From an uncultured Clostridia bacterium (lineage in GTDB: Bacteria; Bacillota; Clostridia; UBA1381), in contig CANQYQ010000001.1 in assembly GCA_947628155.1 (NCBI GenBank), positions 1 through 59,954 of the forward strand: a DNA stretch of 59,954 nt, in the 5' to 3' direction. The notes beneath the pieces are model-generated. The model was not told the origin of the DNA, searched no databases, and worked only from the letters and a program-made list of their open reading frames with translations. A program made the position numbers and the translations under genes. Each line of letters begins with the position of its first letter. The stretch's first letter is position 1. Shown here piece by piece: positions 3,099-43,420 of the stretch.

Positions 3099-5510
3099 AT
3101 GGACAGCTACAACTTTAAAAGCATCGAGAAAAAATGGCAGGACAAATGGGAGGACGCGGGCATTTTCCACGCGGTGAACGGCTCGGAGAAGCCTAAATTC
3201 TACACGCTTATCGAATTCCCGTACCCGTCGGGCGCGGGATTGCATGTAGGGCACCCGAGAAGCTATACCGCGCTTGACATAATCGCGAGAAAACGCCGTA
3301 TGGAGGGTTATAACGTGCTTTATCCCATCGGCTGGGACGCGTTCGGACTGCCTACGGAAAATTACGCGATAAAGAATAACGTTCACCCGCGTATCGTCAC
3401 GGCGGACAATATCGCCAACTTTACGCGTCAGCTTAAAATGCTCGGATTTTCGTTCGATTGGTCGCGCGAGGTAAACACCACCGACCCGAAATATTATAAA
3501 TGGACGCAGTGGATATTTTTACAGCTGTTTAAAAAAGGCCTTGCCTATAAGCAGGAAATGCCCATCAACTGGTGCACCGGCTGCAAGGTTGGTCTCAGTA
3601 ACGAGGAGGTCGTAAACGGCGTATGCGAGCGCTGCGGCAGCGAGGTCGTACAGAGAAGAAAGAGCCAGTGGATGCTCAAAATCACTGAATACGCGCAGAG
3701 ACTTATAGACGATCTTGACGAGGTAAATTACCTCGAAAAGATAAAGACGCAGCAGAAGAACTGGATAGGCCGCAGCGAGGGCGCGGAGGTAAAATTCACG
3801 CTGTCCACGGGCGACGAAATGGTAGTCTACACCACCCGCGCTGACACGCTTTTCGGCGCGACATACACCGTTATGTCACCCGAGCATCCGCTTATTGAAA
3901 AGATGAAGGATTCAATCACGAATTACGGCGAGGTCGAGGCGTATCAGAAGGCGGCGGCGAAAAAGAGCGAGTTTGAGAGAACGGAGCTTGCCAAGGATAA
4001 GACGGGCGTAAAGCTTGAGGGCATTTACGCGGTGAATCCCGCGAACGGCGAGCATCTTCCCGTATTCATTTCCGACTACGTGCTCGTGACCTACGGCACG
4101 GGTGCGATCATGGCCGTTCCCGCGCACGACAGCCGCGACTGGGATTTCGCCAAAAAGTTTGATCTCCCGATTATCGAAGTCGTAGCGGGCGGCGAGGACG
4201 TGCAGAAGGAAGCGTACACGGATGTGTACAAGGGCAAAATGGTAAACTCGGGATTCCTCACAGGTATGACCGTCAAGGAGGCCATTCCCGCCATGATAGA
4301 CTGGCTTGAAAAGGAGGGCCTCGGCAAGCGCAAGGTCAACTTCAAGCTTCGCGACTGGGTATTCTCGCGTCAGCGTTATTGGGGCGAGCCGATTCCACTC
4401 GTGCACTGCGACAAGTGCGGCTGGGTCGCGATACCCGAAAGCGAGCTGCCGCTCACGCTGCCCGAGGTCGAGCATTTCGAGCCGGGAGAAAACGGCGAAT
4501 CACCGCTTGCCAAGGCGACGGATTGGATAAAGACGACATGCCCCGAATGCGGCGGCGAAGCTCAAAGGGAAACCGACACGATGCCGCAGTGGGCGGGGTC
4601 GAGCTGGTACTTCCTCAGATATATGGACCCGCACAACGACGAGGCGCTCGCGTCAAAGGAGGCGCTCGATTACTGGTCGCCGGTCGACTGGTACAACGGC
4701 GGCATGGAGCACACGACGCTGCATCTGCTCTATTCGCGGTTCTGGCACAAATTTCTTTTCGATATCGGCGTAGTGCCGACAAAGGAGCCGTATATGAAGC
4801 GCACGTCGCACGGAATGATATTGGGCGAAAACAATGAAAAAATGTCCAAATCACGCGGCAACGTAGTAAATCCGGACGAGGTCGTAAACGAGTTCGGCGC
4901 GGACGCGTTCAGAACGTACGAGATGTTCATCGGCGCGTTCGATCAGTCAACGCCGTGGTCGCAGCAGGGATTAAAGGGTTGCTATAAATTCCTCGAACGC
5001 GTATGGAATTTGCAGTCAATCGTAAATGACGAAGCGGGTTACAGCGCCGATATGGAAAAGGCGATGCATAAGACGATAAAAAAGGTCGGCGAGGACTTCG
5101 AGCGCATGAAGTTCAATACCGCTATAGCGGCGATGATGGCGCTTGTTAACGATTTCACAAAGAAGGGTTCCGTCACAAAGGGCGAGTACATGACGTTCAT
5201 AACGCTTCTTAATCCCGTCGCGCCGCACATGACGGAGGAGCTGTGGCAAACATACGGCGGCGAGGGATTTTTGTCGATACAGCCGTGGCCTAAGTATGAC
5301 GAGGAAAAGACGGTTGACGACGAGGTGGAGATCGTCGTGCAGATAAACGGCAAGATCCGCGATAAGCTGACAGTTCCCGCCGATATAGACAAGACGGGTT
5401 TAGAGGAGCTCGCGCTTGCGAACGATAAGATAAAGGCGGCCGCAGAGGGCAAAACGATCGTGAAGGTAATAGCGATCCCCGGCCGGCTTGTAAACGTGGT
5501 AGTGAAATAA
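3099..5510 (+). CDS. leuS: leucine--tRNA ligase
   Basis: 803 aa with the class I HIGH motif ([13 protein letters not shown]), the KMSKS motif (EKMSKSRGN), a Zn-type CxxC..CxxC insertion and an editing domain. Confidence 0.97.
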
Positions 5511-5623: not shown

Positions 5624-6556
5624 TTATTCCGGCTTCGCGACCGTGATATTTATTACGCTTTCATCGCGGTACGCGTCCGAACGCCGCGTAAAATGTCCGG
5701 CCTTTACGGCCCAGCGCGCATTTTTCAGCGTTACCGATGTCTGCCCGTCCATATCCGCGATATTGGCAAGCGTTTGTATCAGCTTAACCGCGTCACGCCC
5801 GTTCGCGGCATAGAGCGATATATAATCGCAAACACCGGAATCAAATATTTTATCCGTTTTCTTCGCCGCGCCCTCGACGATTTTTTTTATGTCGCAAAGC
5901 GTAAGCGGATTGAAAAATACCTCCGCGCAGCGTGAGCGGATCGCGGGCGCTATTTCATCCGGACGGCGCGTTGTCGCGCCGATAAGCCGGAAATCGGCGG
6001 GTATGCCGTTTTGGAAAATATCGTGGATGTAGAGCGGGATCTTTTTGTCGGAGGCTCTGTAATATGAGCTTTCAAGCATTACCCTTCTGTCCTCTAAAAC
6101 CTTCAGCAGCTTATTCATCTGTACCGGATGAAGCTCGCCTATTTCATCAAGGAAAAGTACACCTCCGTGCGCCTTTGATACCGCGCCCTCTCTGGGTTCA
6201 GGTATGCCCTTGACGCCAAGACAGCCCGCGCCCTGATAAATGGGGTCGTGCACCGAACCGATAAGCGGGTCGGCGATCGACCGCTCGTCAAACCGCATAA
6301 TTGTCGCGTCCGCTTCGATAAACGGCGCGTCGGGCATGAACGGCGTACCGACGCTTTGCTTCGCGGCCTCCATTGCCAGACGCGCCGCGGCGGTCTTTCC
6401 CACTCCCGGCGGCCCGTATATTATAACGTGCTGCGGATTTTTTCCGCACAGCGCGGCGCACAGCGCGCGTATGCCGTCGGCTTGCCCTACAATCTCCGAA
6501 AAGCTCTTCGGCCGCGCATCCTCCGTAAGCGGTTCGGTCAAATGAACGCGCCGCAT
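5624..6556 (-). CDS. LonB-like AAA+ ATPase, apparently degenerate (no S16 protease domain; N-terminal TM segment cut off by an in-frame TAA)
   Basis: SFSEIVGQADGIRALCAALCGKNPQHVIIYGPPGVGKTAAARL is the LonB-type Walker A region, and Walker B is VLFLDEIGEL. The ORF ends where the Lon protease domain would begin. See the finding covering 5624-6697. Confidence 0.7.
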   Translation of the reverse strand: MRRVHLTEPLTEDARPKSFSEIVGQADGIRALCAALCGKNPQHVIIYGPPGVGKTAAARLAMEAAKQSVGTPFMPDAPFIEADATIMRFDERSIADPLIGSVHDPIYQGAGCLGVKGIPEPREGAVSKAHGGVLFLDEIGELHPVQMNKLLKVLEDRRVMLESSYYRASDKKIPLYIHDIFQNGIPADFRLIGATTRRPDEIAPAIRSRCAEVFFNPLTLCDIKKIVEGAAKKTDKIFDSGVCDYISLYAANGRDAVKLIQTLANIADMDGQTSVTLKNARWAVKAGHFTRRSDAYRDESVINITVAKPE

Positions 6557-6755
6557 TCTGTTCAGCCGCTCCGCCTCCCTTTTTTGCTGCTCGTCATCCT
6601 TCTCCGAGACAGTGCGCTCGGATATAATGCGTTAAAAGAAATATATTCCCACAATCAGCGTCACCGCCAATTGTATAAAAGCGGTAATAGTGTCCATGTT
6701 ATGTCCCTCCGATTGTATTTTTAGCACCTTCGCGCGGATTATTCAGAAAAATGTC

Positions 6756-6784
6756 TTGACAAACATATGTTCGCGTGGTATAAT
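6756..6784 (+). promoter_or_regulatory. sigma-A type promoter with an embedded LexA (Cheo) box
   Basis: TTGACA (6756-6761), a 17-nt spacer, then TGgTATAAT (6776-6784). CAAACATATGTTCG (6760-6773) matches the Firmicute LexA consensus CGAACATATGTTCG at 13 of 14 positions. Confidence 0.6.
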
Positions 6785-6807
6785 ATGGGCATTAAGGCGG
6801 TGATAAA

Positions 6808-8088
6808 ATGGAAATACGTGAAAAGCTTAAAATACTTACGGACGCGGCAAAATACGACGCGTCGTGCTGTTCGTCCGGCTCGGCCCGAAAAAACATACCC
6901 GGCGGGATCGGCGACGCTGCGGCGTGCGGTATATGCCATACGTTTACCGCAGACGGGCGATGCGTATCCCTGCTTAAAATTCTGCTTACGAATTACTGTG
7001 TATATGACTGTCAGTACTGTGTGAACCGGTCTTCAAACGATGTGAAGCGCGCCGCGTTTACGCCGCGCGAGGCCGCGGAGCTGACGATTGAGTTTTACCG
7101 CAGAAACTATATTGAGGGCCTGTTTTTAAGCAGCGCGGTAGTGAAAAATCCCGATTATACAATGGAGCTGTTGATCAACGCGCTGTCGATTCTCCGTAAC
7201 GAATACCGCTTTAACGGATATATTCATGCCAAATCAATTCCCGGCGCGTCGGACGAGCTGGTGACGCGGCTGGGACTTTTGGCCGACCGAATGAGCGTCA
7301 ATATTGAGCTCCCGTCGGAAAAATCGCTTAATGAGTTCGCGCCGCAGAAAACGAAAAAGAATATACTGACCCCAATGCGGCAGATCAAGAATACCATTAC
7401 GCAGTCAAAGAAGGAGCTTGCCGTGTATGAGCACGCGCCGGTGTTTGCTCCGGCCGGTCAGAGTACGCAGATGATAATCGGCGCGACTCCGGAAACGGAT
7501 ATGAATATACTGCTGCTGACGGAGGGACTGTATAAAAATTACAGCTTGAAGCGTGTATTTTATTCATCGTATATCCCGATAGGTACAAATAAGCGGCTGC
7601 CCGCCGCCGCGCCGCCGCTGCTGAGAGAGCACAGGCTTTATCAGGCGGACTGGCTGCTAAGGTATTACGGTTTTGAGGCGAGAGAGCTTTTAGACGAGGC
7701 GCGCCCGAATTTTTCAAATATAATCGACCCGAAATGCGAATGGGCGCTCAGGCATCTTGAGCAATTCCCGATCGAGATAAACAGCGCGCCGTACGAAATG
7801 ATTTTGCGCGTGCCGGGAATAGGTGTGCGCTCGGCGAAAAAAATCGTACGCGCACGCCGCGTATCGCGGCTGAGCTTTGAGGATTTAAAGCGGATGCGCA
7901 TTTCGATGAAGCGCGCGAAATATTTTGTGACCTGCTCCGGCAGAACATACGGGAATATGTGGCTGCGCCAGGAAATCATAACGCCGATGACGCTCGCCGA
8001 TGCGGGCGCGGAGGGTTTCGGACAGCTGAGCTTGTTTGACGAGCCGACGAAAGGGGATGTGGTAAAATGCCTTACCGGAGAGATATAA
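6808..8088 (+). CDS. putative DNA modification/repair radical SAM protein (TIGR03916-like) with a C-terminal helix-hairpin-helix
   Basis: CVYDCQYC is a CxxxCxxC radical-SAM cluster motif. N-terminus ...LTDAAKYDASC. The C-terminal PGIGVRSAKKIVRARR is HhH-like. It is paired with a DUF4130-type gene, as expected for this family. Confidence 0.85.
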   Translation: MEIREKLKILTDAAKYDASCCSSGSARKNIPGGIGDAAACGICHTFTADGRCVSLLKILLTNYCVYDCQYCVNRSSNDVKRAAFTPREAAELTIEFYRRNYIEGLFLSSAVVKNPDYTMELLINALSILRNEYRFNGYIHAKSIPGASDELVTRLGLLADRMSVNIELPSEKSLNEFAPQKTKKNILTPMRQIKNTITQSKKELAVYEHAPVFAPAGQSTQMIIGATPETDMNILLLTEGLYKNYSLKRVFYSSYIPIGTNKRLPAAAPPLLREHRLYQADWLLRYYGFEARELLDEARPNFSNIIDPKCEWALRHLEQFPIEINSAPYEMILRVPGIGVRSAKKIVRARRVSRLSFEDLKRMRISMKRAKYFVTCSGRTYGNMWLRQEIITPMTLADAGAEGFGQLSLFDEPTKGDVVKCLTGEI

Positions 8089-8831
8089 TTTATCTTTACG
8101 ACGGTACGTTCGACGGACTGATGACGGCGGTATTCGCGTCGTTTGAGCATCATGAGATCCCGCTCGGTATTGAGATTGACGGCGAAATACAGCAGACGAT
8201 CGGCGCGGATTATTTCTATGCCGGAACCGACACCGAAAAATCGCGGCGCGTACAATCCGCGATTAGCGGGAAAATTTCCGCGTACGCTATGAAAAGCATA
8301 TATTTCACGTTCCTGTCGGATACGGCGGAAAAAGAAATGAAAATTCTCGCGTACATCTACCGCTGCTTTAAATATGGGAAAGGGGTAAATTCCCACTTGA
8401 ACGATAAATATGTCGCGGCGGTTCTGGACGCGGCGCGGTCTGTAGTGAACGAGGCGCATAAATTGAAGGGGTTTATTCGGTTCGCCGAGCTTGAGGGCGG
8501 GATTTTATACGGCGAGATATCGCCGCGCAGCCACGCTCTCCCATGCCTTGCTTCTCATTTTACAAGCCGATATCCCGGCCGGCCGTTTGTGATAAACGAC
8601 TTGACGCATGGGGAATGTCTGGTGTATAACGGGCACGAATGCGGCATCCGCGAAGCCGGCCGCGTGCCGTCGCTTAAATTCACGGAAAGCGAGATGGAAT
8701 ACAGGCGGCTGTGGAAGGAATTTTACGATACGGTTGAAATTAAGGAGCGGCATAACGAGAAATGCCGCATGACAAATATGCCTAAGCGCTATTGGAAGCA
8801 CCTTACGGAAATGGACGCGCGGCAAAAATAG
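8067..8831 (+). CDS. probable DNA metabolism protein (TIGR03915/DUF4130-like), partner of the radical SAM gene
   Basis: 254 aa. IYLYDGTFDGLMTAVF... is the typical N-terminus of this family. It overlaps the upstream radical SAM gene by 22 nt. No fused uracil-DNA-glycosylase-like domain is visible. Confidence 0.8.
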   Translation: MPYRRDIIYLYDGTFDGLMTAVFASFEHHEIPLGIEIDGEIQQTIGADYFYAGTDTEKSRRVQSAISGKISAYAMKSIYFTFLSDTAEKEMKILAYIYRCFKYGKGVNSHLNDKYVAAVLDAARSVVNEAHKLKGFIRFAELEGGILYGEISPRSHALPCLASHFTSRYPGRPFVINDLTHGECLVYNGHECGIREAGRVPSLKFTESEMEYRRLWKEFYDTVEIKERHNEKCRMTNMPKRYWKHLTEMDARQK

Positions 8832-8944
8832 GCGAATGATATGCCGGACTGTGCGCCGCGCGGTATATATGCGCGTTTGACTGTGCGCCGCGCGGTGTAT
8901 TACATACGCGGCTATATAACGGCGAGCCGGTTCCTTTTCAAGGT

Positions 8945-9769
8945 CTAAATTTCCTTCAGTACGGATCTCCTGTACGATGTGGGCGATTCCCCGAAAAAGG
9001 CGCGGAAGCAGCGGCTGAAATACAGCGCGTCGCCAAAGCCTACCTCGGCGGCGACCTCCGATACGGACATGAACGTGGTGCGCAGCAGCATGCCGGCATT
9101 ATTCATGCGCGCCCGTGTATGGTATTCCTGCATAGTCATGTTCTTTTCACGCTTAAATACCGCCGCCATATACTTATAGCTGAAGTGAAATTCGCGCTCC
9201 AGCTCCGCCGCCGAAAACGGCTTGCCGCAGCGCGATGATAAATACGCGCAGATTTTATCGGATAAAAGGTTTTTATCGGAGTTGTTATAAATCGCGATTT
9301 GCGTAAGCAGCTCAAATAATCTTATGTTTATATTCCAGAGCTTCATCGGATCGTCAGAGTAAAAATAATCCGTATATTCCTCTATCATGCTTTCAATACG
9401 GCTGTTTTTAAGTCCGGAAAGCTGTTTGGGCATCACCGCGTTTTTTTCAAACGCGGACGCGGCGCAGCTTTTGTTCATGCATTCGGGTTTTAGCACACTG
9501 TCACAAAAATGGATATAATACCAGCGAACGCCTTTGCTTATTTCGCGGCGACCGTAATGGCGAACCCCGCTTTTTAAAAACAACAGCTCTCCCGCCTCGA
9601 CAGCGTAATCCGTTTCGTCCTCCGTGATATAAATAGTACCGTCCGTGACATATATCAAAACATTAAAACCGGCGGTTCTGTCCATATGATAAAACGGTTC
9701 GGCGGCCGCAAGCAGTCCGCATTCCGAAAGCACGGGCGGACAGGTATTGGATAAAACGATTTCATTCAT
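8945..9769 (-). CDS. AraC-family transcriptional regulator (cupin sensor plus HTH)
   Basis: N-terminal cupin-like region (VEAGELLFLKSGVRHYG) and a C-terminal AraC HTH (...VSEVAAEVGFGDALYFSRCFRAFFGESPTSYR). It is divergent from the large glycosidase gene. Confidence 0.85.
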   Translation of the reverse strand: MNEIVLSNTCPPVLSECGLLAAAEPFYHMDRTAGFNVLIYVTDGTIYITEDETDYAVEAGELLFLKSGVRHYGRREISKGVRWYYIHFCDSVLKPECMNKSCAASAFEKNAVMPKQLSGLKNSRIESMIEEYTDYFYSDDPMKLWNINIRLFELLTQIAIYNNSDKNLLSDKICAYLSSRCGKPFSAAELEREFHFSYKYMAAVFKREKNMTMQEYHTRARMNNAGMLLRTTFMSVSEVAAEVGFGDALYFSRCFRAFFGESPTSYRRSVLKEI

Positions 9770-9899: not shown

Positions 9900-12800
9900 A
9901 TGAGTATTAAAAGGATTACCGCCGCGGTATGCGCGGCGGCCGTGGCAGCGGCGGCGTTTGTCGTGCCGGTATCGGCCGCGTCGGCCGTATCGGATGAAGC
10001 GGGGTTTAATAACGCCATTGCTGCGGGCGGCGATTATGAGCTTTCGGCGGATATTTCGGCGGCGAACGCGGGGATCAACCAAACTCCGTCAACGGGTACG
10101 CTTGACGGCAAGGAGCATACGCTCACGAAAAAAAGTGATAAATGGGGCGACGCGGTGCTGTATCAAAATTGCAGCGGAAGCTGGACGTTTAAGAATCTGA
10201 CGATAGACGGAAACAAATCGGCAGGCACGTTTACCGACGCGGCGCTGTGGTACATGGCGGGGTCGGTAACATTCGACAATGTGACCATACAGAATTTCAA
10301 AACGTCAAACGCGGCGCGTTACGCGATTAACTGCAACAGCACCGCGAGCATGACGCTTAACAATGTGACGTTTAAGGATAACGAGAACGCGAACGCGGCG
10401 GTAACACCTTCCGATGTGTACATAGACGGCGGAACGCTCGCGCTTTCAGGAGACACCAAAGCGAACGTGTATTACGCGGGCGGCGCGATAGACGTATCGG
10501 GACTTACAAAAGGCTGCAGCGTCACGATCACGGCGGCGGACACGGATAAGTATAAATCGCTTAAATCGCTCGTCACGGCGGCGGCGGTTAAAATGACGGC
10601 GGACGACGGCGCGAGAACGGTAAGCTTTGCGGATTCCGGCGTGGAATGGGCATTGAGCGCGGAGCGGTCGAAATCGTCCGACGGTAAAGTTACCGTGTAC
10701 GCATCGGTATCGAATTTCACCGGCAGCGAAGCGACCGTGAGCGTGACGGCAGCCGCGTATGACGACGGCGCGGCGGGAGATACGCGGAGCGCGGACGTGA
10801 CCGTCGGGGCGAACGGTACAAAATCGGTTTCGATTGAGCTGAACGCATCGGACGAAAGCGTTATAAAGGTTAAGCTGACTTCATCGGGCAAGGATCTCAC
10901 GGATGAAATAACGGTAACCAAAATACGGGAGGACGGGCTGGTATTGTCATATGATTTTGACGATCCCGCCGACACAGCGTCACTTCTTCACGGCGGAGCA
11001 TCGATCGCGGGCGGTCAGGGCATATCCGGGAGCGCGCTGAGCCTTGACGGCACAAGCGGCTATATGCAGCTCCCCGACAATATACTTACCGAAAGCATGA
11101 CGGTTATGGCATGGGTTAAAACCGACGCCGTTCAGGACTGGGCGAGACTGTTCGACTTCGGTTCCGACACAAGCAATTATTTCTTTTACTCCCCTTCGAA
11201 CGGGCGCGTTGAATCGTGTCTTGGCGGAGCGAAGGATACAATGGACGTTACGCCGTTTACAAATACAGGAATATGGGAGCATCACGCGGTCGTGCGTTCG
11301 GCAGACCATGTTTGGCTCTACCGCGGCGGCAGTCTTGTAAGTGATAAAGCGTGCGCGAAATCGATCGCCGGTATTCCGAACACATCGAACTATATAGGCA
11401 AATCGCATTACGCGACGGACAAATACTTCAAGGGGACTATGGACGAGATGAAAATTTACAATAAAACCTGCACCGCCGGGGAAATCAAGGCGGAATACGA
11501 CAAATACGCGGCGCAGATAAGCACGGCCGCGGCTTATAAGGATTACGCCGACCTCGATTTCGGCACGACCGAGCTGACGGATGGCACGATCCTTCCGTCA
11601 AAGGGCGCCAACGGCAGCGATATTACATGGATGTGCTCCGACGCTTCCGTAATCGGCGCGGATATGACAATAACCGCTCCCGCCGCGGGAGAGGCGGATA
11701 AGCGTGTAACGCTTACGGCAACGATTAAAAACGGAAGCACTGTATATACAAAGGCGTTTGACGTGACGATCCTCGCCGCGCCGTCGATCACCGGACTTTC
11801 CGATTACAGCATGACGGATGTTGAAATGAAGGACGATTACCTTATAAACGGTACGGAAAAAATGGCCGCGTATCTGAACGATTTTGATATAAACAAGCTC
11901 GCGTCGGGATTCAGGCGCACGGCGGGACTGTCACAAACCTCAGACACGTACGGCGGCTGGGAAACAAGTCTTATCGCCGGTCACGCGGTAGGTCATTACA
12001 TGACCGCCGTCGCGCAGGGTTATAACAATACCGGCGACGAGGGATTGCTTAAAATGTCGAACGCGCTTATAGACGCGCTGTATGAAGCGCAGATCAAGGA
12101 GGACACGACCGTAAACGGCAATCCCGTAAAGAAGGGTTATCTGTTTGCGACCACAAATCCGTGGAGCGGCGGCAGGGTCGTAACGGGCGAAGGGCAGTTT
12201 GACAATATCGAAAATAATAAGGGAAATATCACAACAGAGGCGTGGGTGCCGTGGTACACGATGCATAAAATACTCGCGGGTCTTGTCGATACGTATAAGC
12301 TTACCGGCAACGAAAAGGCGCTCGAAATGGCCGACGCGCTCGGCACATGGGTTTACAACAGGGTCAAAAATTACGACGCGGCAATGCAGGCGCGCGTATT
12401 AAACATCGAGTACGGCGGCATGAACGACGCGCTTTACGAGCTGTACAAAATCACGAAAGACCCCAACCACGCTAAGGCGGCGCATATGTTTGATGAGATA
12501 AGCCTGTTCGACAGTCTGTATAACGGCGAGGACGTTTTGGCAAACAAGCACGCGAATACAACTATACCGAAAATTATCGGCGCGCTCAACCGCGTAAGAG
12601 CTATCGACGCGACGGGCGGTCAGCTTGAAAAGGACGCGCCCGACAGCGCGCATGACAGGGAATATTACCTCACTGTCGCGGAGAATTTCTGGGATATGGT
12701 CGTTAACGACCACTCGTACATCACCGGCGGCAACAGTGAGAACGAGCACTTCCGCGCGGCGCATACGGAAAACGCGTACCGCAATAACGTGAACTGCGAA

Positions 12801-14768
12801 ACGTGCAACACCTACAATATGCTAAAGCTCTCGCGCGAGCTGTATAAAATTACGGGAGAGAAGAAATATAAGGATTACTACGAGGGCACGTTCTTGAACG
12901 CAATCGTTTCGAGTCAGAACCCGGATACGGGTATGACGATGTACTTCCAGCCGATGGCGACGGGATATTTTAAGGTATATTCCACGCGCTGGAGCGACTT
13001 TTGGTGCTGCACCGGCTCGGGCATGGAGAATTTTACGAAGCTTACGGACAGTATTTATTACAAAAAGGATAATACGATAGTTGTAAATCAGTATATAAGC
13101 TCCGTGCTGACCGATACTGAGAACGGGATAAGGCTTACACAGGATTCGTCGCTGCCGGACGGGGATACGGCGAAATTGACAATCGAGCGTACGGATAAGG
13201 CCGCGTCGGATCGCGCATGGGCGTTGACGGCGCAAAAAACAGATGGCGGGAAAATAACCGGTACTATCACAAACAACAGCGGAAAGTCAAATAAGGCGGT
13301 CATTTATGCCGCGTCATATACCGCGAATAAGCTGACGGATGTGAAGAAGCTTGATTATACCATTGAAAACGGACAGACGCGGGAGTTTGAAACCGAGCTC
13401 AAAAACGGCGATGAGGTAAAGGTATTCCTCTGGGATGATAATCAAGCGCCGCTTGCCGACGCGGTAATTCCGGGTGAGCGGCAGGATGCCGGCCATACGG
13501 CGATAGCGCTGCGCGTGCCCGAATGGTGCGCGGCCGCGCCGATAATCAAGGTAAACGGCGAGGCTATTGAATATACGCGTTCGGCGGGCTACGTTACGAT
13601 AGACCGCGAGTGGAGCACGGGTGATACGGTCGAGATCACAATGCCGATGGAGATGCGCGCGTACGGACTTGCGGACAGCGATACGGTGACGGCGTTTAAA
13701 TACGGCCCGACTGTGCTGAGCGTCGGGCTGGGAGCGGGCGACACCGCGGAGGAAAGTCACGGTATGGCGGTCAGGAAGCCGAAAAATAAGGGCGACGTAA
13801 ACGAGTATGTTATAATCGACTCCGATTACGGTACGCGCGAAAAGTGGCTTGAACATATTAATGAGAACATGGTCAAAACCGACGGCAAGCTTGAATTTAC
13901 TATGCAAAATACCGATCAGGCGCTCGTGTTTACGCCGCATTATAGGCGTCACGGCGAACGCTACGGCATATATTGGTACGTGTCGGGCATGACCGAGGAG
14001 GAGCAGCAGGCGCAGATTTTAGCCGATAAGCAAAAGGGACGCGACGAGAATGTAATTATCGATTCAATTGAGCCGTCGCACGACCAGCAGGAGAACGGCC
14101 ACGGATATACGCAAGATAGATCCACCGGAGTAGAGGGTACGGGCGATATGGTAAATTACCGCGAAATCAAAAGCGGCGGATATGTAGATTACCAGATGGC
14201 GGTTAAAAAAGGCGTTAAGAATTATCTTTCGGTAACGTATCATTCAAGCGACGCCGGAAAGCAGATGACGATTTACGCCGGAGATGTGAAGCTTGCCGAC
14301 GTGACCGCGGGCGGTCAGAATGAAACGGTACGTTACGAGATCCCCGAGGCGGCCGTAAACGCGGCCGCGGCGTCAACGGCGGACACGATAAAGGGACGCG
14401 ACGCGCTGCATATTATATTCCGCGCGGACAAAAATACGGACGCGCCGAAAATATGCGGCACGGTCAAAATCGTGACCGATTACGGCACGAACGCTTCGCT
14501 TTCGGAGCTGACATTTGATAAGGGCGAGCTTTCGCCGGCGTTTAGTGCGGATACGGCGGAATATACGCTGAGTGTTCCGCCGGGTACGGAAAGCGTTAAT
14601 TTAAAAGCAGCTCCGGCGGACAAATACGGACTTGTGTATGTGAATGATATTCTGATAAACGACGCCGTGTCAAAGACCGTTCCCGTTTCGGAAGGGTTTA
14701 CGATCAGGGTTTACGCGGAGGATCATGAAACATCAAGGGAGTATACGATTACATTTGTAAAGCGGTAA
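9900..14768 (+). CDS. secreted multidomain glycoside hydrolase, GH127/GH146 (DUF1680, beta-L-arabinofuranosidase-like) core
   Basis: Start set at ATG 9900 (RBS GGAGTGG; signal peptide MSIKRITAAVCAAAVAAAAFVVPVSAASA). Domains by eye:
- N-terminal beta-helix-like region.
- LamG/concanavalin-like module (SALSLDG..YMQLP...ARLFDFG...GTMDEMKIY).
- Ig-like module.
- DUF1680 core with the Zn/catalytic Cys motifs CETCNTYNM and WCCTGSGMENF.
- C-terminal cadherin-like module (SLSELTFDKGELSPAFSADTAEYTLSV). Confidence 0.8.
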   Translation: MSIKRITAAVCAAAVAAAAFVVPVSAASAVSDEAGFNNAIAAGGDYELSADISAANAGINQTPSTGTLDGKEHTLTKKSDKWGDAVLYQNCSGSWTFKNLTIDGNKSAGTFTDAALWYMAGSVTFDNVTIQNFKTSNAARYAINCNSTASMTLNNVTFKDNENANAAVTPSDVYIDGGTLALSGDTKANVYYAGGAIDVSGLTKGCSVTITAADTDKYKSLKSLVTAAAVKMTADDGARTVSFADSGVEWALSAERSKSSDGKVTVYASVSNFTGSEATVSVTAAAYDDGAAGDTRSADVTVGANGTKSVSIELNASDESVIKVKLTSSGKDLTDEITVTKIREDGLVLSYDFDDPADTASLLHGGASIAGGQGISGSALSLDGTSGYMQLPDNILTESMTVMAWVKTDAVQDWARLFDFGSDTSNYFFYSPSNGRVESCLGGAKDTMDVTPFTNTGIWEHHAVVRSADHVWLYRGGSLVSDKACAKSIAGIPNTSNYIGKSHYATDKYFKGTMDEMKIYNKTCTAGEIKAEYDKYAAQISTAAAYKDYADLDFGTTELTDGTILPSKGANGSDITWMCSDASVIGADMTITAPAAGEADKRVTLTATIKNGSTVYTKAFDVTILAAPSITGLSDYSMTDVEMKDDYLINGTEKMAAYLNDFDINKLASGFRRTAGLSQTSDTYGGWETSLIAGHAVGHYMTAVAQGYNNTGDEGLLKMSNALIDALYEAQIKEDTTVNGNPVKKGYLFATTNPWSGGRVVTGEGQFDNIENNKGNITTEAWVPWYTMHKILAGLVDTYKLTGNEKALEMADALGTWVYNRVKNYDAAMQARVLNIEYGGMNDALYELYKITKDPNHAKAAHMFDEISLFDSLYNGEDVLANKHANTTIPKIIGALNRVRAIDATGGQLEKDAPDSAHDREYYLTVAENFWDMVVNDHSYITGGNSENEHFRAAHTENAYRNNVNCETCNTYNMLKLSRELYKITGEKKYKDYYEGTFLNAIVSSQNPDTGMTMYFQPMATGYFKVYSTRWSDFWCCTGSGMENFTKLTDSIYYKKDNTIVVNQYISSVLTDTENGIRLTQDSSLPDGDTAKLTIERTDKAASDRAWALTAQKTDGGKITGTITNNSGKSNKAVIYAASYTANKLTDVKKLDYTIENGQTREFETELKNGDEVKVFLWDDNQAPLADAVIPGERQDAGHTAIALRVPEWCAAAPIIKVNGEAIEYTRSAGYVTIDREWSTGDTVEITMPMEMRAYGLADSDTVTAFKYGPTVLSVGLGAGDTAEESHGMAVRKPKNKGDVNEYVIIDSDYGTREKWLEHINENMVKTDGKLEFTMQNTDQALVFTPHYRRHGERYGIYWYVSGMTEEEQQAQILADKQKGRDENVIIDSIEPSHDQQENGHGYTQDRSTGVEGTGDMVNYREIKSGGYVDYQMAVKKGVKNYLSVTYHSSDAGKQMTIYAGDVKLADVTAGGQNETVRYEIPEAAVNAAAASTADTIKGRDALHIIFRADKNTDAPKICGTVKIVTDYGTNASLSELTFDKGELSPAFSADTAEYTLSVPPGTESVNLKAAPADKYGLVYVNDILINDAVSKTVPVSEGFTIRVYAEDHETSREYTITFVKR

Positions 14769-42646: not shown

Positions 42647-43420
42647 TTACTTAATCTGTAATCTAATACGGTCGGCCACCATAGCGATGAACTCCGAATT
42701 TGTAGGCTTTCCCTTACCGGTATGGATGGTGTACCCGAATATTTCGTTCATAGTCTCAGGCTTGCCTCTGCTCCACGCAACCTCAATAGAATGGCGGATG
42801 GCTCGTTCAACGCGGCTTGCGGTCGTATTATAAGCCTTTGCGATATCGGGGTAAAGCTGTTTGGTGATGAAATTCAGCAGATCCATATTTTCCACAACCA
42901 TCATAATCGCGCTGCGGATGTACTGATATCCTTTGATGTGTGCGGGAACTCCGAGTTCATGGATGAATTCCGTTACAATAGTCTCAAGGTCGTAGTCCTT
43001 ATTTTGGGGCAGGGCCTCAGGGACGCTTGCTTTTGACGGCTTTACCGCATGCGTGAATTCACGGATCGTGTCGCACACTCTTTCGGGTGACTGAGGCTTT
43101 AACAGGTAATAATCAGCGCCGAGGTTAAGCATAGTCTCAACCGTTCTTACAAGCGTTGAAATCGAATATACTATAACGATTGGTTTTTTCGGAAATTCCG
43201 CTGTTCGGAGACGTTTTAATACGCCTATCCCGTCAAGCTCCGGCATTACCATATCAAGTATCAAAACATCCGGCTCGATTTCCTTGATACGCGCTAACGC
43301 TTCATTCCCGTTTTCGGCTGTCGTAACTTCCATATCGGGCTGTGCGCCGATATACTCAGACAGCTCTTTTGTCAGTTCCCGGTTGTCATCTGCGACTAAT
43401 ACAGATATTAAGTTATTCAT
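42647..43420 (-). CDS. spo0A: sporulation master regulator Spo0A
   Basis: Receiver domain (VLVADDN...[14 protein letters not shown]). The Spo0A-specific C-terminal DNA-binding domain has [19 protein letters not shown] and [15 protein letters not shown]. Confidence 0.95.

Follow-up and report, generated by a model that had tools for sequence, protein, structure and literature searches.

A two-gene cassette at positions 6756-8831 of a contig from an uncultured Clostridia bacterium of lineage UBA1381 (GenBank assembly GCA_947628155.1, contig CANQYQ010000001.1) encodes a radical S-adenosylmethionine (SAM) protein of family TIGR03916 and a partner of family TIGR03915, which carries the domain DUF4130. 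The whole stretch of DNA that was analysed, 59,954 nucleotides (nt) long, is called the window here. We hypothesize that the cassette is a bicistronic operon of the SOS response under repression by LexA, and put the probability of this reading at about 0.8. A preliminary description of the window had suggested SOS repression of the cassette promoter, and the suggestion is supported by conservation of the putative operator upstream of orthologs, by its emergence as the top palindrome in a de novo enumeration, and by a geometry in which operator and promoter overlap.

Promoter, predicted operator and operon structure

The sequence elements of the cassette and the family memberships of its products are observed directly, in the following arrangement (ORF, open reading frame; aa, amino acids).

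6756-6761, plus strand: -35 hexamer TTGACA, read directly and found by a consensus scan, kept in the closest orthologs
6760-6773, no strand assigned: predicted LexA (Cheo-type) operator CAAACATATGTTCG, whose reverse complement CGAACATATGTTTG has the form GAAC-N4-GTTT
6776-6784, plus strand: extended -10 element TGgTATAAT (TG at 6776-6777, TATAAT at 6779-6784), read directly and found by the consensus scan
6794-6803, plus strand: Shine-Dalgarno-like sequence AAGGCGGTGA, read directly, 4 nt ahead of the ATG at 6808
6808-8088, plus strand: ORF1, TIGR03916 radical-SAM protein of 426 aa (NCBIfam, 658.7 bits against a cutoff of 343.5)
8050-8057, plus strand: Shine-Dalgarno sequence AAAGGGGA of ORF2, read directly, inside the end of ORF1
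8067-8831, plus strand: ORF2, TIGR03915/DUF4130 partner of 254 aa (NCBIfam and Pfam), beginning MPYRRDIIYLYDGTFDGL...

The two promoter hexamers agree with the consensus at 12 of 12 positions in the scan and are separated by a 17-nt spacer, with an extended -10 element in addition, so that the promoter given in the preliminary description (TTGACA, 17 nt, TGgTATAAT) is correct in both coordinates and letters. The operator CAAACATATGTTCG also lies where it had been placed, overlapping the -35 element and the spacer; it covers the final 2 nt of the former and 12 of the 17 nt of the latter. The single mismatch to the LexA consensus that had been counted in it is not real: on the minus strand of 6760-6773, CGAACATATGTTTG has 0 mismatches to CGAACATATGTTYG, agrees with GAAC-N4-GTT(C/T), and fits the clostridial form GAAC-N4-GTTT exactly. 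Such a mismatch would in any case be tolerable, since the GTTT half-site position varies in real boxes of clostridia and Bacillus.

The pattern GAAC-N4-GTTT is the one used for LexA of Clostridium acetobutylicum, C. perfringens and C. difficile, and GAAC....GTTT boxes stand in the C. difficile promoters of lexA, recA and ruvC (PMC4234289). The recA operator of that species, AGAACAAATGTTTG, is bound by its LexA in vitro, as seen by surface plasmon resonance, with the slowest off-rates, and is likewise a 14-base-pair (bp) element of the type GAAC-N4-GTTY with an AT-rich centre and promoter overlap (PMC4234289); the window operator differs from it at two positions. Such Cheo boxes serve SOS genes like recA, lexA or uvrB, whereas the box in the window fronts a pair without established biochemistry, and its binding by LexA is predicted.

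Transcription would start near 6791, as deduced from the position of the -10 element. ORF1 and ORF2 overlap by 22 nt, the same overlap recurs in orthologs, and together with the ribosome-binding site of ORF2 it would be the usual signature of translational coupling. We infer LexA binding and damage induction along the following lines. In undamaged cells, a LexA dimer would occupy the 14-bp operator at 6760-6773 and, by overlapping the -35 element of a consensus sigma-A promoter and covering the larger part of its spacer, would exclude RNA polymerase. Upon DNA damage, RecA filaments on single-stranded DNA (ssDNA) would bring about self-cleavage of LexA, and this very strong promoter would fire. 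A single mRNA with a short leader would then yield the radical-SAM protein and, through the overlapping frame, its DUF4130 partner.

Conservation of the box and other possible routes of control

The ortholog set comes from one scan of a species-representative genome collection and comprises 80 loci, all of Bacillota and mainly of uncultured Clostridia, with protein identities of 56-87%. Conservation of the box upstream of orthologs had been proposed as a check, and the outcome is strongly positive: 53 of the 80 orthologs carry RAAC-N4-GTTY in the 200 nt ahead of the radical-SAM start, against 54 of 4205 background 200-nt windows of the same loci (1.3%) and 7 of 462 regions upstream of other long ORFs (1.5%). 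A control confined to promoter regions gave 6-9% with divergent neighbours sharing the cassette's intergenic region and, corrected for these, 1.5-3.2%. Strict published LexA patterns are found at 38/80 orthologs and in 32/4205 background windows. When all inverted repeats of 4-mers, with spacers from 0 to 10, were enumerated without a prior, AACA-N2-TGTT came first (37/80 against 19/4205); it is the inner core of the Gram-positive LexA operator known as the Cheo box. With a position weight matrix built from the ortholog sites themselves, 65 of the 80 loci exceed the 99.99th background percentile (strong boxes), and the window operator scores 20.8 bits, with 10.0 for the runner-up in the 60-kb window; as such a matrix is circular, it was used for ranking only. 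Because 24 of the 26 protein clusters at 70% identity hold a boxed member, the signal is not that of one inherited copy.

The position of the box relative to promoters is observed in three geometries: a start inside the -35 element (TTGACAAAC..., the window's clade), an end in the -35 element (...GTTTGACA), and a place a few bases past the -10 element. Among the 65 strong boxes, 49 overlap the region from -35 to -10, 13 begin 0-30 nt downstream of the -10 element (11 of them within 7 nt of it), and 3 lie further upstream; the box overlaps or abuts a sigma-A-type promoter in 62 of the 65 boxed orthologs. Each of the three would be a textbook arrangement for a repressor that occludes the promoter. 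Promoter and box are kept in the clade of the window itself, where the flanks have diverged.

Several points weigh against control by LexA. Judged from the window alone, the significance of the box is modest (p ~0.03-0.07): the operator site is the sole match to CGAACATATGTTYG at one mismatch or fewer, where 0.10 are expected, but 3 of 100 shuffled windows do as well (window-only p ~0.03), and the core GAAC-N4-GTTC at up to one mismatch has 20 matches in the window against 21.4 expected, which is the chance level. A loose consensus scan of the window, allowing 3 mismatches, was likewise at chance level and uninformative. The weight of the box therefore lies in the position of the site and in its conservation in orthologs. 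On the latter, one half-site is degenerate in three of the six nearest relatives (L005 CAAATGTATGTTCG, L007 CAAACATACATTCG, L010 CAAATATTTGTTCG); as the left half-site, CAAAC, runs into the -35 element, its conservation could be partly promoter-driven; and the geometry counts are biased, because promoters in the orthologs were sought in the vicinity of the box. No lexA, recA, uvr or dinB gene was found on the 59,954-nt contig, either among ORFs of at least 200 aa or by tblastn, and tblastn with LexA, RecA, UvrB and DinB against the 80 ortholog loci returned only S24-domain genes of relatives; for this lineage, LexA and its motif are presumed, given how strongly the Gram-positive motif is conserved.

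Taken to their limit, the shuffles and the core frequency would reduce the palindrome to an accident of AT-richness in a strong promoter, bound by no repressor, with the operon constitutive; the CA of the -35 element does belong to the box. We consider this extremely improbable, as the same class of 14-mer stands upstream of 53-65 of the 80 orthologs against 1-3% in controls, is found at three places with respect to the promoter, ranks first among the de novo palindromes, and stays in place while the flanking promoter sequence diverges.

The 15 orthologs without a strong box offer a further view of how the cassette is controlled. Near the cassette, eight of them carry a gene for a protein with the domains HTH_3 (helix-turn-helix, HTH) and Peptidase_S24, against 0 of the 65 boxed orthologs (Fisher p = 2e-7), and these S24 repressor proteins, of ~205-250 aa, carry Ala-Gly, Ser and Lys motifs. 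Their genes, of two types, are the following.

L012 5228-5857, L018 5234-5863, L021 5234-5863: type A HTH_3+Peptidase_S24 genes
L024 5309-5926, L037 725-1378, L075 2424-3179: further type A HTH_3+Peptidase_S24 genes
L025 3116-3730, L045 5224-5838, minus strand: type B HTH_3+Peptidase_S24 genes, in Breznakia genomes

The S24 gene lies directly upstream of the cassette on the same strand in L012, L018, L021 and L024, and is divergent from it in both Breznakia genomes (L025, L045). A palindrome, ACAACT-N3-AGTTGT, has 10 sites at up to one mismatch in 941 kb; 6 of the 10 precede an S24 gene (in L012, L018 and L024, and three in L075), and sites also stand at -71/-73 of the radical-SAM gene in L059, L061 and L075, so that 9 of the 10 are placed in one of these two ways. 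The Breznakia loci have TACGT-rich inverted repeats instead, for example AGTACGTAAACGTACT. Two other loci without a strong box carry a canonical box at -291 of the radical-SAM gene (L079) and a one-mismatch box directly past the -10 element (L047), and only ~3 of the 80 loci (L015, L019, L049) showed no candidate operator.

The S24 protein looks like an autoregulated, CI/HdiR-like repressor of the same cassette, which would provide a second route to damage induction; this wiring of the box-less loci would be an independent link of the cassette to RecA-triggered derepression. Repressors of the HdiR or "non-canonical LexA" HTH+S24 kind are known from Streptococcaceae and Bacteroidetes, and the likeness is seen in the 8 orthologous loci; the Bacteroidetes "non-canonical LexA" proteins (PMC8565304) resemble the S24 repressors described here. 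The difference is that the S24 genes stand beside the cassettes of relatives and not in the window, and that the operators of those relatives are different motifs. As a separate observation, a YbaK/EbsC-like divergent neighbour (MSIERVREYFKKYDMDD...) shares the ACAACT-N3-AGTTGT regulatory region in L059, L061 and L075 (5366-5851, minus strand).

That relatives' cassettes seem to be wired to HTH+S24 proteins through ACAACT-N3-AGTTGT, together with the assumed specificity of LexA in this lineage, leaves some room for a real operator that belongs to a regulator other than LexA, such as a lineage-specific repressor reading a GAAC/GTTC-like inverted repeat. We hold this to be unlikely. The ortholog consensus is the canonical Gram-positive LexA box, including the flanking C/G and the AT-rich centre (PMC4234289); no regulator gene is conserved beside the boxed cassettes (S24 matches 0/65), and relatives do not conserve the AraC gene that follows the cassette in the window; and identical boxes stand at further intergenic sites in one relative's locus (L076, at 11953 and 13127), as a global regulator would give.

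The latter locus, from a metagenome-assembled genome of Alkaliphilus, also deserves description in its own right. Its two additional perfect Cheo boxes, AGAACATATGTTCT and AGAACATACGTTCT, at 11953-11966 and 13127-13140, flank an XRE-HTH gene (12585-12926, minus strand) and an ImmA/IrrE-like metallopeptidase gene (11975-12463, minus strand), and this boxed module may be a LexA-controlled mobile-element immunity module.

Around the cassette in the window lie the following features.

5624-6556, minus strand: LonB-like AAA+ protein of 310 aa, the divergent upstream neighbour
6632-6697, minus strand: 21-codon hydrophobic ORF MDTITAFIQLAVTLIVGIYFF with a GGAGGG ribosome-binding site, its start region conserved in L001
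8847-8868 and 8879-8900: 22-nt direct repeat GACTGTGCGCCGCGCGGT(A/G)TAT, the copies spaced at 32 nt within the 113 nt that separate the operon from the AraC-family gene
8945-9769: AraC-family gene, the convergent downstream neighbour

The box is 63 nt from the start of the small ORF, and divergent genes share the intergenic region in many relatives, so one may ask whether LexA mainly serves a divergent minus-strand transcript (the ORF at 6632-6697 and the LonB-like gene at 5624-6556) and affects the cassette incidentally. This is very improbable in our view: no sigma-70-like promoter was found on the minus strand in 6698-6800, the box is inside the plus-strand promoter, and the neighbours of the cassette vary among orthologs, with the box tracking the radical-SAM gene. 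The LonB-like protein matches only part of the LonB model, from position 46 to 340 of 531, and its 474 bits fall short of the cutoff of 723; with leuS ending at 5510, there is no room for a protease domain in its gene. Downstream of the operon, no clear intrinsic terminator was seen in 8826-8950, where folding is no better than in shuffles (z = -1.3). The contig further contains leuS, cobalamin-synthesis genes, transporters and a Spo0A-like gene. The ORF at 42647-43420 (minus strand) has an N-terminus that resembles, by eye, the sporulation regulator Spo0A; the Spo0A-like and LonB-like genes suggest a host among the spore-forming Clostridia.

The two proteins and their possible chemistry

The preliminary description had named the first gene as a TIGR03916 radical-SAM protein with a CxxxCxxC motif, and both parts of this are borne out. 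The family match spans residues 3-393 of the 426 in ORF1, the Pfam Radical_SAM model scores 29.7 bits (gathering threshold, GA, 29.5), and the motif is formed by C64, C68 and C71 in NYCVYDCQYC, invariant in 36 and in 81 homologs. A putative helix-hairpin-helix (HhH) motif, LRVPGIG, lies at residues 333-339 within a region reaching to 347; P336, G337 and G339 are 100% conserved, the Pfam HHH_3 model scores 22.8 bits, below its GA of 27, and the region gives weak PDB matches to the HhH of ComEA and RuvA. N-terminal to the CxxxCxxC motif, C20, C43, H44 and C52 (window positions 6865-6963) are 100% conserved in 81 homologs, in a region where the AlphaFold2 (AF2) model has a predicted local distance difference test score (pLDDT) below 50; the set may form an auxiliary Fe-S cluster or metal site.

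The second gene was likewise identified correctly, including its first letters: ORF2 scores 233.9 bits for TIGR03915 (cutoff 112.25) and 162.6 bits for PF13566, DUF4130 (cutoff 27). DUF4130 is its sole Pfam match, with no uracil-DNA glycosylase (UDG) domain, and the partner proteins in the 80 Bacillota loci, at 244-341 aa, are too short for a UDG fusion of the TIGR03914 type. The AF2 model of ORF2 is good (pLDDT 88.3), and its nearest solved folds in Foldseek are DHH/DHHA1 proteins, namely PAP phosphatase 8a8k, PggH, RecJ and Cdc45. A 2026 preprint likewise sees a DHH-type fold in DUF4130 and reports an AlphaFold3 (AF3) complex of DUF4130 with the radical-SAM protein (ipSAE 0.80), in which the predicted heterodimer has a narrow channel fit for single-stranded nucleic acid (bioRxiv 10.64898/2026.08.19.745780). 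A PDB sequence search returned no solved homolog of either cassette protein.

The claim that the pair is always co-encoded does not hold strictly: an adjacent DUF4130 partner is present at 70 of the 80 orthologous loci, the contig ends too early at 4, and the remaining 6 lack a DUF4130 gene in the vicinity. These six are L026, L027, L039, L051 and L064, with radical-SAM proteins of 407 aa, and L063; in L039, the gene after the radical-SAM gene is convergent. The upstream box, CAAACAA(A/G)(T/G)GTTTG, is retained in the partnerless loci L027, L039, L051 and L064. In such loci the partner may be encoded elsewhere or be dispensable.

What the pair does can be sketched more speculatively, complex formation and chemistry being the parts that we infer. 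The two proteins would form a heterodimer on DNA, probably single-stranded, with the HhH motif and the DHH/RecJ-like fold of DUF4130 holding the nucleic acid; the [4Fe-4S]/SAM site would generate a 5'-deoxyadenosyl radical, which would abstract a hydrogen atom from a damaged nucleotide; and the outcome would be direct repair or processing that needs neither oxygen nor light, as would suit an anaerobe. That the cassette carries out repair, as opposed to modification, by radical hydrogen abstraction on ssDNA is a tentative proposal, and several results count against this chemistry. The ORF1 model is mediocre (pLDDT 66.6), its Foldseek matches are generic radical-SAM barrels (HydE, LipA/LIAS, RimO, BioB, ThiH, HydG, viperin and RlmN) with template-modelling (TM) scores of ~0.35-0.41, no spore photoproduct lyase (SPL) is among its top 50 Foldseek matches, and DUF4130 resembles DHH proteins only weakly (TM 0.30-0.39). 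With no SPL among the fold matches, ORF1 is not a relative of SplB, and the repair role is drawn from context.

An SPL-like enzyme was also considered as a candidate and is not supported, as ORF1 is without an SplB match in NCBIfam and Pfam and gives only generic radical-SAM barrels in Foldseek.

LexA control may equally be real while the products install a modification in nucleic acid, whether methylthiolation, methylation or sulfur insertion, and whether on DNA or RNA; its purpose could be damage tolerance, mutagenesis, or defence against induced prophages. The nearest solved folds of ORF1 are indeed sulfur-insertion and methylthiolation enzymes and RNA methylases (LipA/LIAS, RimO, BioB, RlmN), and the invariant C20/C43/H44/C52 could bind an auxiliary cluster as in enzymes of the LipA/LIAS, RimO and BioB type. 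The 2026 preprint likens the complex to MiaB/RlmN and proposes a 'SAM-dependent modification' (bioRxiv 10.64898/2026.08.19.745780), and DUF4130 has been termed a predicted mutagenesis-related enzyme for which thymine modification is possible (PMC3765255). On the other hand, SOS control, the recurrent fusion or association with UDG in other phyla and the HhH motif point to a damaged DNA substrate, the Foldseek matches are to generic barrels at TM ~0.35-0.41, and PADLOC returned no defence-system match for the cassette. We regard modification as possible though rather doubtful.

Known systems and the meaning of a probable LexA control

The preliminary description had implied that a link of this pair to LexA was new, which is not the case: the link was predicted in 2013 for the C. 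acetobutylicum orthologs CAC3343-CAC3344, and a UDG-linked version has been reported in three other phyla. Wang et al. (2013) found a conserved SOS box at CAC3343-CAC3344 and placed these genes in the LexA regulon with lexA, recA and uvrB, citing footprint and expression data (PMC3828012). Like the window, that locus belongs to Clostridia and has an SOS box in its promoter; it is from a different species, and its assignment to LexA is computational with microarray data. Aravind et al. (2013) had placed DUF4130 in SOS-linked gene neighbourhoods (PMC3765255). As a member of a regulon proposed earlier, the window operon was to be expected and is not a discovery.

Sanchez-Osuna et al. (2021) report SOS regulation of a UDG-containing COG1573-COG4277 operon in Verrucomicrobia, Alphaproteobacteria and Bacteroidetes (PMC8565304 and its references 7 and 65). 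That operon shares with the window a radical-SAM gene, with an HhH that is putative in the window, and a DNA-repair-type partner under the host's SOS repressor (COG4277 and TIGR03916 being equated by their descriptions only). It differs in having a UDG domain where the partner in the window has DUF4130 only, and in operators whose motifs are far from the one here and are bound by LexA proteins of divergent or non-canonical type. A further comparison is SplB, likewise a radical-SAM enzyme that acts on DNA and is linked to SOS in several species, and the only established precedent of direct DNA repair by a radical-SAM enzyme; it is of a different family from ORF1 and needs no DUF4130 partner.

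What the present analysis adds is a class-wide quantification over 80 Bacillota orthologs, which extends the single-genus prediction of 2013, and the description of three operator geometries and of the alternative HTH+S24 wiring in relatives. Convergent wiring of the latter kind would make for a stronger functional link of the cassette to damage sensed by RecA. In its widest form, which we put forward as a speculation with the odds against it, the cassette would be a core damage-response effector of Bacillota, independently wired to at least three RecA-cleavable repressors (LexA with the Cheo box, HTH+S24 with ACAACT-N3-AGTTGT, and a second HTH+S24 type in Breznakia) and carrying out an undescribed radical repair of ssDNA lesions; if true, this would be a second radical-SAM DNA repair chemistry besides that of spore photoproduct lyase.

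TIGR03916/TIGR03915 is a widespread pair whose biochemistry was never established. LexA control behind a promoter of consensus strength would tell experimenters the timing, namely that the proteins are made after DNA damage, and it suggests the substrate to offer them: damaged, probably single-stranded DNA.

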